Positions 11,650 to 15,885 of a stretch of DNA of 27,306 nucleotides are shown here, one piece after another. The DNA comes from Patescibacteria group bacterium (lineage in GTDB: Bacteria > Patescibacteriota > Minisyncoccia > Phycocordibacterales > PALSA-1337): assembly GCA_028864955.1 (NCBI GenBank), contig JAGWLE010000001.1:1-27306 (forward strand), read 5' to 3'. Numbering within the stretch: the first letter of the stretch is position 1; the number at the start of each line of letters is the position of its first letter. Made by a program: the position numbers and the translations under genes. The notes beneath the pieces are model-generated. The model had not been told where the DNA came from, made no database searches, and saw only the letters and a program-made list of their open reading frames with translations.

Positions 11650-12882
11650 CTACTTTGCCTGGCGCAAAATCCTGTCGATCATGCCGGCGATCCTTTCCAT
11701 GTCTTTTTCCTTGCCACCCCTGGTCGTCTCCGCCGCCGTGCCCAAACGAATACCTGAAGGATCGGCAGGAGGTCGCGTATCGAACGGAATAGCGTTCTTA
11801 TTGACAATGATGCCCTTTTGCTCGAGCCGCCGGCTGGCCTCGGCGCCGGCTATGCCGCCAACCCCCCGATCATTATTGCGGCCGTCGTTCCAGGTATCGA
11901 CAAGCACGAGATGCGAATCGGTGCCGCCGGAGATCAGCCGCCAACCGCGGTCTTGAAGCGTTTCCGCCAGCGCTTTTGCATTCTTCACGACTTGAGCGGC
12001 GTACTTTTTGAAAGTTGGGCTGGCCGCTTCACGGAGCGCCACCGCCACCGCCGCAATCTGATTTTCGTGCGGACCGCCCTGCAGACCGGGAAAAACCGCT
12101 TTGTCGATCTTCTTCCATAGCTCTCGCGAGTCTTTGCGTGAAAATATGAGCGCCGAGCGCGGCCCCCGCAGAGTCTTGTGCGTCGTGGTAGTCACGACAT
12201 CGGCATAATCAAAAGGCGACGGATACGCCCCACCGGCCACCAAGCCGGCGATATGAGACATGTCGACCATCATCAGCGACTCGGCTGACGTCGCCACTTC
12301 CTTGCACCTCTGCCAGTCGATGACGCGCGGGTAGGCCGTGTAGCCAAAAACGATGATCGTCGGCCGCTCTTTCATGGCTTGTTCGCGCAAAATATCGTAG
12401 TTCAACATCTCTGTCGTTTGATCGAGGCCATAGGGCACTTGCGTCCAGAATTTGCCCGAGGCCGAGACTTTTTGACCGTGCGTCAGATGTCCGCCCTGAT
12501 CGAGCGCCATGCCCATGATCTTGCCGGCAGGCGTCGGCCGACCATCGGCCGCGGCGCCGGCGCGTGGCACCAGCGCCATATACACGGCCGTATTCGCCGG
12601 CGAGCCGGAGAGCGGCTGTACATTGACATGCCACTCGGCCGGATTGAGCCCGAAGAGTTTGAGGGCGCGCACCTGACAGAGCTTCTCGAGCTTATCAACA
12701 ATCTGATTGCCGCCATAATAGCGCTTATCGGGATAGCCTTCGGAATATTTGTTGGTAAATTCGGAGCCTAAAGCTTCCAGCACATCGCTGGATACGTAAT
12801 TTTCCGAAGCAATCAGATTGACGACTTTTTTCTGGCGCCTCTTTTCAGCTTCGATAAGTTTTTTGACTTGAATATCTTTCAT
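11650..12882 (-). CDS. glyA: Serine hydroxymethyltransferase
   Basis: LIASENY, NKYSEGYP.KRYYGG, VQPLSGSPAN, GGHLTHG, PLP-lysine motif TTTTHKTLRGPR, FPGLQGGPH and SGIRLGT. Confidence 0.98.
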   Translation of the reverse strand: MKDIQVKKLIEAEKRRQKKVVNLIASENYVSSDVLEALGSEFTNKYSEGYPDKRYYGGNQIVDKLEKLCQVRALKLFGLNPAEWHVNVQPLSGSPANTAVYMALVPRAGAAADGRPTPAGKIMGMALDQGGHLTHGQKVSASGKFWTQVPYGLDQTTEMLNYDILREQAMKERPTIIVFGYTAYPRVIDWQRCKEVATSAESLMMVDMSHIAGLVAGGAYPSPFDYADVVTTTTHKTLRGPRSALIFSRKDSRELWKKIDKAVFPGLQGGPHENQIAAVAVALREAASPTFKKYAAQVVKNAKALAETLQDRGWRLISGGTDSHLVLVDTWNDGRNNDRGVGGIAGAEASRRLEQKGIIVNKNAIPFDTRPPADPSGIRLGTAAETTRGGKEKDMERIAGMIDRILRQAK

Positions 12883-12915
12883 GGTAGCGAAATGTTTACC
12901 GAATGCGTGTCTTAA

Positions 12916-13899
12916 TTATTTCCTGTCCTTCTCATCGAAGCCGCCAGCCACCGTCATTTTTGCCTTGAGGACCGGATGAGGATCATAATCCTCGAGTTTG
13001 ACCATGTCTGGCCGGAAGCTGGCCAAGTCTTTGACCTCATCGGACAAGACGAGCCGGGGAAACGGCTTGGGAATACGCCTGATCTGTTCCCTGACCTGCG
13101 GAATATGATCTTCGTATATGTGCGCGTCGCCAAGCGTGTGGATGAATTCGCCTGGTTCGTAACCGCAGATCTTGGCCACGATCATGGTTAGTGCCGCGTA
13201 ACTGGCGATATTGAAGGGCACGCCCAGGAACATGTCGCAGGAACGCTGATACAAGAGGCAGGATAATTTGTTGCCGGCAACGTTGAAATGGAAGAGGATA
13301 TGGCAGAGTGGGAACGACAATGCCTCACCCGGCTTGGCCATGGCATAGAGGTATTGCGGATTCCAGGCGGACAAGATCGCGTGTTTGCGTTCCGGGAAAT
13401 TCTTGAGCGTATCCACGACCCAGGCCAACTGGTCAATCTTGCGGCCGTCGGCGGCCGGCCAGGCACGCCACTGTTCGCCGTAAATGCGCGGCAATTCGCC
13501 GTGAGCCGCGGCAAAATCGGTGTCTGTGCGGATCTTTTCCACGAATTCCTCGAGAGTGAGCGGCGGCAATTCGCCTGTATCAGCCTTCTTTTTATAGATC
13601 TTGTAGGGATAATCGTTCCAAATAGGCACCTTATGGTCGACGAGATATTTGATATTGGTCTGACCTGACATGAACCAGTAGAGTTCATGCATGATGCTGT
13701 TCCATGGCACTTTTTTGGTGGTGAGCAGCGGGAATCCTTGGGAAAGATCAAATCTCATCTGTCTGCCAAAGACGCTGGTCAGTCCGGTGCCGGTATTATG
13801 ATCATGCTTCAAAACGCCGTGATCGAGAATATCCCGCAGAAGATCAAGGTACTGGTACTCCGGATGCGAACGGCCCGTGTTATTGTGTGTCTTGTTCAT
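12916..13899 (-). CDS. thyA: Thymidylate synthase (ThyA family), divergent phosphate-binding residues
   Basis: FGRQMRFDLSQGFPLLTTKK, HELYWF, YGEQWR, SAWNP, catalytic PLCH, YQRSCDMFLGVPFNIASY and GDAHIY. Confidence 0.95.
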   Translation of the reverse strand: MNKTHNNTGRSHPEYQYLDLLRDILDHGVLKHDHNTGTGLTSVFGRQMRFDLSQGFPLLTTKKVPWNSIMHELYWFMSGQTNIKYLVDHKVPIWNDYPYKIYKKKADTGELPPLTLEEFVEKIRTDTDFAAAHGELPRIYGEQWRAWPAADGRKIDQLAWVVDTLKNFPERKHAILSAWNPQYLYAMAKPGEALSFPLCHILFHFNVAGNKLSCLLYQRSCDMFLGVPFNIASYAALTMIVAKICGYEPGEFIHTLGDAHIYEDHIPQVREQIRRIPKPFPRLVLSDEVKDLASFRPDMVKLEDYDPHPVLKAKMTVAGGFDEKDRK

Positions 13900-13964
13900 G
13901 AAGATAACGAGTTAGCTGATACGTATCCAAACACTCCGTGCGATGAGATCAGGCCATGGCGGGA

Positions 13965-14567
13965 TTATTTCTTGCGGCTGGATGACTTATGGGACATTTT
14001 GACGGCGCCGGTACGTCTGGTTTCCTCTTCCTTTGGATCGACGAAATGCTGCCAGTCGCGATCATGGTAGCGGCCAGTGACCTTGTAGTCTTTTTGCGGC
14101 ACATCTGATAATTCGGAAAAAAGAATCTGCCCGATGCGCATGCCCGGCCGCAAAATGATGGGAATATGGTTGAGATTGGCGAGCTCGAACGTGATATTCA
14201 AAAAATGGCCCGGATTGATGATGCCGGCAGTGTTGTGAATAATGAGGCCCAGCCGGGCCAAACTGCTCTTGCCGGACAGATGCACGAGGTATTTATCTGA
14301 GCCGAAATAGTCGATAGATGTGCCGAGCACGCTGACTCCCGGATGAAGGACAAACCTGCCGCCTTCGGGAATGATGATCTCCTTGGTCTCCGGAAAAATC
14401 TTCATAACCGGATCTATAGCGGTCGTGGATTCGGTATTGCTGATGATGAATTTGTGACCAAGGAGGATATCGTAACTGGCCGGTTGTAGACGATCCTCGT
14501 CGAATGAGTGGATGACGATGTCACCTTTTTCCAAAGCTTTCTTAATATCGCGATCGACGAGATACAT
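13965..14567 (-). CDS. dcd: dCTP deaminase
   Basis: LQPASYDILLG, FVLHPG, GKSSLARLGLIIHNTAG, TFELAN (catalytic Glu), PGMRIGQ and Y...GRY. Confidence 0.93.
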   Translation of the reverse strand: MYLVDRDIKKALEKGDIVIHSFDEDRLQPASYDILLGHKFIISNTESTTAIDPVMKIFPETKEIIIPEGGRFVLHPGVSVLGTSIDYFGSDKYLVHLSGKSSLARLGLIIHNTAGIINPGHFLNITFELANLNHIPIILRPGMRIGQILFSELSDVPQKDYKVTGRYHDRDWQHFVDPKEEETRRTGAVKMSHKSSSRKK

Positions 14568-14583
14568 GGCGGTGATGATGCTG

Positions 14584-15264
14584 TTATTCTATAGTAAACG
14601 TCTTCTCCGTTCCATAGTACTCCTGCCAATGGGAATTGTAATGGGCGAACATCCTTTCCAGGCGATCTTGCGGCAATTCAGACAGGCCAAGAACATTCAT
14701 GACGTTCGCGAGTTCCCGCCTGATATCATCCAGTCTGCTCTGATCCTCGGTCACGCGCTCGAATTCCGCCAGATATCCGTAACCGGCATTGCGGTCGATG
14801 CAGACGTGCATGTCCTCGGCCGCATACTCCTGCCGCTCGCGCGACCACTTGGCTTGATATGTGCAACCGGCGTCGAGCAACACCGTATCGAGTTCGTCCA
14901 GTGTTTTTTCAACGGGCACCTCGAATTCCATGCGCTTGACGCCGTTTGAACTGGTATCGTCCCCGACAGAGGCCTTCATAACCAACAGAACCTGGTTGTC
15001 GGTCTGGCGAGACCGGAGCGAAATCTTGGTGCCGCGAGTCACGATCTCTTCACACCGAGATCTCTGATCGGCCGGAATAATGTCCGCCAAGGCTCGGCGT
15101 AGAGGCTCCAGATCCGCCGGCAAATTGAAATAATGATTGAGCTGCCGGCCCGCGCTGATCATCTTGATGCCGGGAAATCGCTTGGAGAGATCGCGCTTGA
15201 GCTTCTCGGCGTTCTTCTTGGAGCCAAGCAGCGTCTTGATTTCAACCTCATACGAGTGCTTCAT
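14584..15264 (-). CDS. CYTH / triphosphate tunnel metalloenzyme family protein
   Basis: ExExK motif (YEVEIK), QLNHYF, LRSR, KRMEFE, KWSRERQEY, ID...GYGYLAEFE. Start moved to the ATG at 15264 (AAAGGA upstream) because the longer ORF overlaps the divergent folA. Confidence 0.85.
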   Translation of the reverse strand: MKHSYEVEIKTLLGSKKNAEKLKRDLSKRFPGIKMISAGRQLNHYFNLPADLEPLRRALADIIPADQRSRCEEIVTRGTKISLRSRQTDNQVLLVMKASVGDDTSSNGVKRMEFEVPVEKTLDELDTVLLDAGCTYQAKWSRERQEYAAEDMHVCIDRNAGYGYLAEFERVTEDQSRLDDIRRELANVMNVLGLSELPQDRLERMFAHYNSHWQEYYGTEKTFTIE

Positions 15265-15289
15265 GAAGGTATCCTTTACAGGTCTATGA

Positions 15290-15317
15290 AGTATAATGTT
15301 CCTACAGTCGTTTACAA
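15290..15317 (-). promoter_or_regulatory. Promoter TTGTAA-N16-TATACT for CYTH-dcd-thyA-glyA, overlapping a plus-strand TATAAT facing folA
   Basis: Minus -35 at 15312-15317 and -10 at 15290-15295; plus-strand TATAAT at 15292-15297. Confidence 0.6.
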
Positions 15318-15342
15318 GGATGACAGATAACTGATTTCTATT

Positions 15343-15885
15343 ATGAAATGTTTCATTATCGCCGCCCTGACCGCCGACGGCTATATCGCCAAGGATGAGC
15401 GCCATCCGGCGTTCTGGAGCAGTAAAGAAGACAAGAAGCGTTTTGTGGAACTGACCAAGCGAGCCGGCGTCGTGGTCATGGGCTCGACGACATTCGCTAC
15501 CCTGCCGCGACCGCTCAAGGAACGCGTCAACATCGTCTATTCGCGGACAAAGACGTTTGAGGGCGCGGAGTCGACAGAGAAGGATCCAAAGGCGCTCCTG
15601 GCGGATCTGGAAATCCGCGGTTTCAAGGAAGTCGCTATCTGCGGCGGCGCCCAGGTATACACCATGTTCATGAAGGCCGGCGTTGTCGACCAGCTGTACC
15701 TCACCGTCGAGCCGCTGGTATTCGGCAGCGGCGTGCGATTATTCAATGACGACATGCTTTACCAACTCAAACTCATGAATTCGAGCGTCACCGAGAATGG
15801 CTCGGTCATGCTCGAATACGCGGTGCATCACGGACCGCAAAAAACCGAGTCAAGCGGCGTGCTCGTCGAGGAGAGAACTATATAG
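15343..15885 (+). CDS. folA: Dihydrofolate reductase
   Basis: IAALTADGYIA, W...ED...F, VVMGSTTF..LPRPL..RVNIVYSR, ICGGAQVY..F and LYLTV. Confidence 0.93.
   Translation: MKCFIIAALTADGYIAKDERHPAFWSSKEDKKRFVELTKRAGVVVMGSTTFATLPRPLKERVNIVYSRTKTFEGAESTEKDPKALLADLEIRGFKEVAICGGAQVYTMFMKAGVVDQLYLTVEPLVFGSGVRLFNDDMLYQLKLMNSSVTENGSVMLEYAVHHGPQKTESSGVLVEERTI

Follow-up and report, generated by a model that had tools for sequence, protein, structure and literature searches.

The window examined here is a 27,306-nucleotide stretch (contig JAGWLE010000001.1, assembly GCA_028864955.1) from a Patescibacteria group bacterium, a tiny symbiont, whose genome, referred to as G000, is represented by a 643-kb assembly that is 87% complete. 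The window contains the gene string CYTH - dcd - thyA - glyA - argS, with a DHFR-family (dihydrofolate reductase) gene in divergent orientation and rplK-nusG beyond it. The thyA coding sequence (12916..13899, minus strand, stop codon at 12916-12918) specifies a protein of 327 amino acids (aa), and profile, AlphaFold2 and Foldseek results all support its assignment as a thymidylate synthase (TS). TS is among the most conserved and best-studied enzymes and is a drug target; its four-arginine clamp and its C-terminal carboxylate latch are textbook invariants. Our alignments place the window protein in a distinct subfamily of Patescibacteria whose phosphate and lid side appears to have been rebuilt; this entire natural subfamily dispenses with two or three clamp arginines and with the free C-terminus. 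We denote this variant subfamily and its gene ThyA* and thyA*, as opposed to canonical ThyA.

The thyA* product matched PF00303 with 336.3 bits (cut-off 24.3) over profile positions 2-266 of 266, and TIGR03284 with 371.8 bits (cut-off 108). Its closest characterized relatives were the long-form TS of Lactobacillus casei and Enterococcus faecalis (EC 2.1.1.45; PDB 4tms and 3uwl), to which it was 45-48% identical. The names borne by close homologues assign the organism to Patescibacteria of a Taylorbacteria/Zambryskibacteria-like kind. The AlphaFold2 model, computed from a 74-sequence alignment as a monomer without ligand, had a predicted local distance difference test score (pLDDT) of 94.1 and a predicted template modelling (TM) score of 0.92; Foldseek matched it to solved TS at E = 1e-39 with TM values of 0.84-0.95 (0.84-0.87 for the L. 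casei and E. faecalis enzymes). ThyA* has in common with these two enzymes the fold, a small-domain insert of about 50 residues, the equivalents of the catalytic Cys-His, of R218/S219, of the Asn, His/Tyr, Glu and Tyr and of Lys48 and Trp80, and also the genomic partners DHFR and serine hydroxymethyltransferase (SHMT). The catalytic pair C199-H200 (13300..13305, minus strand; C146-H147 in Escherichia coli), E72 (E58) and Y140 (Y94) were invariant in the subfamily alignment and in 22/22 variant rows, and N230, D222, H260 and Y262 (Asn177, Asp169, His207 and Tyr209 of E. coli, concerned with uracil/deoxyribose specificity) were invariant as well. When 22 diverse variant rows were set beside 62 canonical rows, K48, E58, I79, W80, Y94, C146, H147, R166, S167, D169, G173, F176, N177, H207 and Y209 did not vary in either. 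As judged from these alignments, the subfamily has kept all residues for catalysis and for the binding of uracil, deoxyribose and folate, in agreement with a preliminary description of the window, which had listed Arg166/Ser167, Cys146, Glu58, Tyr94, Asp169, Asn177 and His207/Tyr209 as retained.

Two traits of canonical TS were absent. Only R166 (R219 in ThyA*) remained of the four clamp arginines R21, R126', R127' and R166, and in place of a C-terminal carboxylate right after the last beta-strand we found 10 extra residues. The clamp is a trait of canonical members and no part of the PF00303/TIGR03284 profile definition. ThyA* is a ThyA member by profile, fold and catalytic residues that lacks the clamp and free C-terminus traits, and it is most fittingly classed as a new structural variant within the ThyA family. 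It does not resemble the dCMP/dUMP hydroxymethylases of the T4 gp42 and SPO1 gp29 type: Asn177 is kept and not replaced by the Asp of the dCMP enzymes; a DHFR gene adjoins, for which such hydroxymethylases have no need since they form no DHF (dihydrofolate); and the locus, between nusG-rplK and argS, is a housekeeping one and not the phage or modification setting typical of them. The single PF00303 match returned by a profile search of the 87%-complete G000 assembly was thyA* itself; no ThyX was found in that assembly, and ThyX was present in just 3/40 variant genomes. ThyA* is the sole thymidylate synthase found in G000 and in most variant genomes.

The departures from canonical TS were restricted to one face of the active site, namely the R21 loop, R126/R127, L143, the segment before the catalytic Cys, in part W83, and the C-terminus. 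The R21 phosphate loop of ThyA* reads D33-H34-N35-T-G-T-G (D33-H34-N35 at 13795..13803, minus strand) against the canonical D-R-T-G-T-G, with His at the position of R21 and an inserted Asn. Alignments made by HMMER against the TS of E. faecalis and L. casei and other solved TS, and by MAFFT with E. coli ThyA, bore out the preliminary description in its claim that KNDRTGTG had become KHDHNTGTG, with loss of R21 and one extra residue at 13795-13803. They upheld equally its ungapped reading of 13381-13389, in which Arg126 is changed to Lys and Arg127 to His and a new Arg stands one position earlier: P-E-R171-K172-H173-A (R171-K172-H173 at 13381..13389, minus strand, against E. coli S125-R126-R127) matched P-D-S-R126-R127-I gaplessly, the basic pair being shifted one position N-terminally. 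The chain does run past the usual C-terminus, as had been described, by the 10 residues A318-K327 (AGGFDEKDRK; 12919..12948, minus strand), which were modelled as a short helix with pLDDT 79-84. Three further changes had been missed. A seven-residue insertion, K189-S195 (13315..13335, minus strand; pLDDT 88-90), lies before the catalytic Cys and is preceded by a subfamily-invariant Tyr185 at the position of E. coli D139; the L143 equivalent is Phe; and the W83 equivalent, changed in part of the subfamily, is Tyr. R219-S220 (13240..13245, minus strand; E. coli R166-S167) represents the sole kept phosphate-binding Arg and its partner Ser. Relative to the L. casei and E. faecalis enzymes, the equivalents of R23, R178' and R179' are replaced and the phosphate loop is one residue longer, seven residues are inserted before the Cys and 10 follow the position of the C-terminal carboxylate, the L143 equivalent is Phe and, in the window's clade, the W85 equivalent is Tyr. 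The earlier proposal of intact chemistry with a remodelled phosphate pocket is supported by this pattern, since the catalytic set is invariant and R21, R126, R127, L143 and the C-terminus are changed.

These changes are not erratic. Among the canonical rows R126 occurred in 62/62, R21 in 60/62 and R127 in 58/62, whereas position 21 was H, A, E, F or K across the 22 variant rows. The subfamily has invariant residues of its own, the Tyr at E. coli position 139 and the GG pair of the tail, the latter followed by an aromatic residue (GG[FY]). DHNTG, P[ED]RKHA, the insertion before the Cys and MTVAGGF[DN]EKDR were nearly invariant among 120 close homologues, a pattern that is not due to chance and that, at the level of sequence, indicates strong purifying selection on the subfamily's own motifs. 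The basic residues appear to be relocated and not simply lost. In the window's subclade and in the deeper branches, positions 125-126 were R-K, followed by H or S; in a sister subclade the residues there were [A/C]-H-N or A-R-N. An R or K three residues before the Cys was found in 11/16 members without R125-K126 and in 2/25 members having it, and in the sister subclade of other orders an R or K was often back at position 21. In some deeper-branch members the R21 loop was replaced by a segment 13 residues longer. Such a relocation is what would be expected if a phosphate were still bound. Canonical TS is closed over its ligands by a latch made up of R21, W83 and the C-terminal carboxylate, R21 being in contact with the phosphate as well. 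Because R21, W83 and the C-terminus have changed together, the alterations read as one coordinated rebuild.

To define the clade we used an order-level sample (401 genomes of the order of G000) and a phylum-wide sample (400 Patescibacteria genomes; G553, although listed, is unpublished and was not used for any claim). The genomes behind all counts given here are related to one another and do not represent independent samples. In the order, a ThyA with 55% or more identity to the query was encoded by 38/401 genomes, with a clean score gap between variant proteins (at least 415 bits) and canonical ThyA (at most 337 bits). These 38 core genomes and three with deeper-branching proteins (G158, G342 and G358) make up the order's variant set (n=41). 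The deeper branches, to which the metagenomic representatives P0126, P0135, P0139 and P0159 also belong, resemble the core in having the insertion ahead of the Cys and a GG[FY] tail and in lacking R126/R127. The alignment and tree of ThyA that had been proposed as a check were made, and they define a monophyletic subfamily: in an IQ-TREE analysis with indel columns removed, all 22 variant rows fell on one side of a branch with a Shimodaira-Hasegawa-like approximate likelihood ratio (SH-aLRT) of 97. The phylum-wide sample contained the subfamily in ~36/400 genomes, spread over many families, orders and a second class. When 1.84 billion representatives were searched, the variant type made up only about 10 of the 150 best clusters; the remaining clusters kept the arginines, bar scattered single R127 substitutions. 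The subfamily is monophyletic and widespread in Patescibacteria, being carried by about 10% of the genomes sampled, for which it is usually the only thymidylate route.

Two other features of the family emerged from these samples. A third type of ThyA homologue, 300-330 aa long, only 30-38% identical to the query and belonging to neither the canonical nor the variant type, was present in many genomes of the order (e.g. G111, G091, G039, G003 and G035). A single in-frame TGA was seen in thyA* of G534, G587, G467, G513 and G598 (one family, f165, and a few others), a sign that TGA may be recoded from a stop in these organisms.

The literature that we searched contains one description of a clamp arginine lost in nature. 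ThyA of the VAAP clade (Vibrio parahaemolyticus TS) has a natural R127' to Gly change yet continues to use dUMP, with weaker binding and a raised Km, and its authors call this single loss the first natural case (PeerJ 2018, PMC6005164). One Arg is lost there, whereas the ThyA* subfamily has lost R126'/R127' throughout and R21 mostly, and has two indels and a tail in addition. The engineered L. casei TS mutants R23I, R178T and R179T and their doubles (PDB 1bp0, 1bo8, 1bo7, 1bpj and 1bp6, whose titles were among the Foldseek matches) are altered at the same three positions with R218 kept; they are without compensating changes, unlike ThyA*, which has conserved relocated K/R/H residues, the insertion and the tail. 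The subfamily may thus be regarded as a natural experiment on the rebuilding of phosphate binding and active-site closure. Our literature search found no paper on this ThyA subfamily, nor on any link of CYTH to TS or to dUTP.

The reading that we favor, with a probability of about 0.6, is that ThyA* is a working folate-dependent TS that converts dUMP to dTMP with a relocated phosphate clamp. The 5'-phosphate would be held by R166/S167 together with the relocated basic residues; these would be R125-K126-H127 and the H at position 21 in the window's subclade, and in the sister subclade the K/R three residues before the Cys, often with a K/R at position 21. The new tail would replace the latch of R21 and C-terminal carboxylate that closes canonical TS. 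ThyA* being the sole TS in most genomes and having DHFR and SHMT as neighbors, it must be expected to make thymidylate by a reaction that yields dihydrofolate (DHF). The glyA gene for SHMT (11650..12882, minus strand, profile match) lies immediately downstream of thyA*, and the divergent DHFR-family gene (DHFR_1/RibD_C; 15343..15885, plus strand, profile match) lies on the other side of the module. SHMT regenerates methylene-tetrahydrofolate and DHFR recycles the DHF made by the true ThyA reaction, so that their presence next to thyA* argues for reductive methylation with DHF as the product; the two enzymes would close the folate cycle.

The dUMP for this reaction would be supplied from within the module. 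The dcd gene (13965..14567, minus strand) was identified by profile matches as a dCTP deaminase, and comparison with orthologues showed that it has Asn in the IDPG motif; the CYTH (triphosphate tunnel) gene (14584..15264, minus strand, profile matches) is the first of the module. The Asn was invariant in all Dcd genes of the order's module (L044-L052 and L070, the latter from G249), while in other orders the Dcd adjoining CYTH keeps Asp (HSTAGHIDPG). The locus of G249, a genome of the same genus as G000, was informative (L070, G249:C3:39000-54000, compared with window positions 11650-15885). At the same place between folA and glyA it carries Dcd and a true Dut, an oppositely transcribed canonical ThyA, and Tmk (dTMP kinase). 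Its Dcd is 78% identical to that of the window and has the same Asp-to-Asn change. Since an Asn-type Dcd is followed there by a true Dut, the Asn type would form dUTP by deamination and depend on a second enzyme to hydrolyze it, and we infer from sequence that the window dcd encodes a monofunctional dUTP-forming enzyme. The sets {CYTH, ThyA*} and {Dut, ThyA, Tmk} have been exchanged in situ, presumably by horizontal replacement. A CYTH gene of the window type was found in 37/41 variant genomes of the order, always adjacent to thyA*, and in 0/23 canonical genomes. Of the order's genomes, 16/20 canonical ones had a true Dut, as against 2/38 core variant ones, and the count for variant genomes of other orders was 2/36; no Dut was found in the 87%-complete G000. 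As CYTH occupies the Dut slot and the two distributions are complementary, CYTH probably replaces dUTPase. In the proposed route, dCTP would be converted to dUTP by Dcd, whose Asn variant could not carry out the dUTPase step, and dUTP to dUMP by the CYTH enzyme in the place of Dut; this points to a probable new job for CYTH, dUTP hydrolysis. Compared with the E. coli dcd-dut-thyA-tmk route, G000 has Dcd, ThyA, DHFR, SHMT and NDK (nucleoside diphosphate kinase), but no Dut or Tmk was found in its assembly and CYTH stands in the Dut slot, whereas G249 has the full classical set.

The occurrence of Dut and/or Tmk in operons with ThyA* in several lineages supports dUMP as the substrate. In G358, which has no CYTH in its genome, the order is Tmk (135 bits) - Dut (106 bits) - ThyA* - DHFR/FolD; other operons read Dut-ThyA*-FolA-GlyA (G783), CYTH-ThyA*-Dut (G468), Dcd-Tmk-CYTH-ThyA* (G714) and dUTPase-DHFR-ThyA* (the P0139 contig), and in G056, G140 and G158 the next gene downstream of thyA* is tmk. 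The gene directly downstream of thyA* in G358 (L069:5601-6926) encodes a 442-aa fusion of DHFR and FolD dehydrogenase/cyclohydrolase domains. The preliminary description had suggested a substrate in a different phosphorylation state; we do not favor this in view of the Dut/Tmk operons, of ThyA* active-site motifs that were the same in genomes with and without Tmk, and of charges that were relocated.

Several observations weigh against the favored reading, one being the distribution of dTMP kinase. Strong Tmk (PF02223) matches were obtained in 18/41 variant genomes of the order versus 36/39 canonical ones, and in 17/36 variant genomes of other orders, so that Tmk is missing from about 55% of the variant genomes as compared to 8% of the canonical. 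Some of the genomes without Tmk are rated 96-100% complete and consist of 3-10 contigs. One genus can contain both genomes with tmk and genomes without it, which indicates that tmk was lost many times. A tblastn search with the Tmk proteins of five relatives detected neither Tmk nor a tmk remnant in G000 or in the argS-glyA gap, and a scan of G000 for Walker motifs combined with Pfam detected no P-loop nucleotide kinase except the ADK-family protein by ndk. The co-directional open reading frames in the tmk slots of relatives without Tmk gave Pfam matches to HD/YfbR-like or Nudix domains or none at all, and no kinase. If the product is dTMP, such cells need an unrecognized dTMP kinase; the alternative is an enzyme that also handles a more phosphorylated substrate, and the route to dTDP in these members is a question that the subfamily raises. 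Being mixed (18/41 and 17/36), the occurrence of Tmk is no clean discriminator of the substrate and decides nothing alone, and a comparison of genomes with and without Tmk revealed no ThyA* residues that track it.

The supply of dUMP and the loss of the arginines also tell against it. For most known CYTH enzymes the target is the gamma-phosphate or inorganic triphosphate (PPPi), so that dUTP-to-dUMP conversion by CYTH is a putative activity, and G468 has CYTH and a Dut together. In some genomes the place of CYTH directly upstream of thyA* is taken by DutL, a Dcd-like paralogue of 180-200 aa (PF22769, 82-94 bits), at L073:5335-5940 (G254), L072:7857-8423 (G156), L105-L109 (G773, G511, G440 and G712) and L113 (G453). 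The deaminase Glu is missing from DutL, as is the motif-3 Asp of dUTPases in four genomes of other orders, while the C-terminal YRGQ.QGGR arm is retained; DutL is at best a doubtful source of dUMP. We had considered the DutL of G156 and G254 as a dUTPase proving dUMP supply, and dropped this because orthologues elsewhere lack both Asp and Glu and G156 has a ThyX next door. Engineered arginine mutants of L. casei TS reportedly bind dUMP much more weakly, and those of the Morse/Kawase 2000 work are reported to be strongly impaired. The contacts that would compensate for the lost arginines in ThyA* are inferred from the alignments.

The strongest rival, which we nevertheless consider unlikely, is that ThyA* takes dUDP and/or dUTP, alone or besides dUMP, to give dTDP/dTTP, thereby circumventing dUTPase as well as dTMP kinase. 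Small side chains in place of the arginines would leave space for the additional phosphates, the tail (D-E-K-D-R-K) would help bind them, and dUDP would come from dUTP through CYTH or directly from an NDP reductase. The typical chemistry of triphosphate tunnel enzymes, removal of the gamma-phosphate, agrees with this, as do the repeated loss of tmk even within genera, the near-absence of true Dut from the core clade and the occurrence of NDK in 38/38 core variant genomes. It would likewise suit the G000 locus, where {CYTH, ThyA*} stands exactly where G249 has {Dut, ThyA, Tmk}. Were this reading true, CYTH and ThyA* would form a short-cut to dTDP/dTTP in which dUTPase and dTMP kinase are dispensable, explaining the loss of tmk in about half and the absence of dut in nearly all variant genomes. 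However, true Dut and Tmk are encoded in ThyA* operons of several lineages, where Dut would destroy the substrate dUTP and Tmk would be pointless with dTDP as the product. The surroundings of the site contain fewer, not more, basic residues, the ThyA* motifs are alike whether or not Tmk is present, and G156 is without both Tmk and CYTH.

A second rival, to which we assign still less weight, holds that ThyA* works only in a complex with CYTH or DutL, the partner handing over the nucleotide and supplying phosphate contacts in trans; the pocket would then have been remodelled to suit channelling and not another substrate. The near-obligate adjacency of CYTH (37/41) and, where CYTH is absent, the catalytically doubtful DutL directly upstream of thyA* would fit such an arrangement. 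The R21 loop, the tail and the insertion before the Cys were modelled as ordered (pLDDT 79-90), and the canonical counterparts of these segments lie near the surface of TS. Yet G358, G783 and the P0139 contig have ThyA* with a normal Dut only and with no CYTH or DutL nearby, and no fusion proteins were seen. Action on the unphosphorylated nucleoside (dU to dT) or another chemistry such as hydroxymethylation would suit the loss of three phosphate ligands, but we rejected the nucleoside and regard the whole idea as very improbable, because R166-S167 is invariant, no thymidine kinase was found in the 87%-complete G000, the adjoining DHFR implies DHF production, N177, E58 and Y94 are kept, and the sole TS of most genomes must supply thymidylate.

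Additional observations concerned other nucleotide enzymes of the variant genomes. In 35/38 of them NDK is about 205 aa long and contains an insertion of about 35 residues, which divides its Pfam match into two parts (profile positions 1-49 and 56-135). The ndk gene of G000 (G000:C62:4313-4834) adjoins the one ADK-family kinase detected there. The 87%-complete G000 yielded no ribonucleotide reductase of class I/II or class III, and a PF02867 reductase was present in 21/38 variant genomes. An HD-domain YfbR-like 5'-deoxynucleotidase and a Nudix hydrolase were encoded in the thymidylate module of some relatives without Tmk (L050:6111-6773 in G079 and L072:4494-5060 in G156). Outside nucleotide metabolism, the isoleucyl-tRNA synthetase (IleRS) of a close relative (1213 aa, L043:14867-18508) has a His_Phos_1 domain between the tRNA-synt_1 halves, an arrangement that agrees with a separate note on the ileS of the window in the preliminary description.

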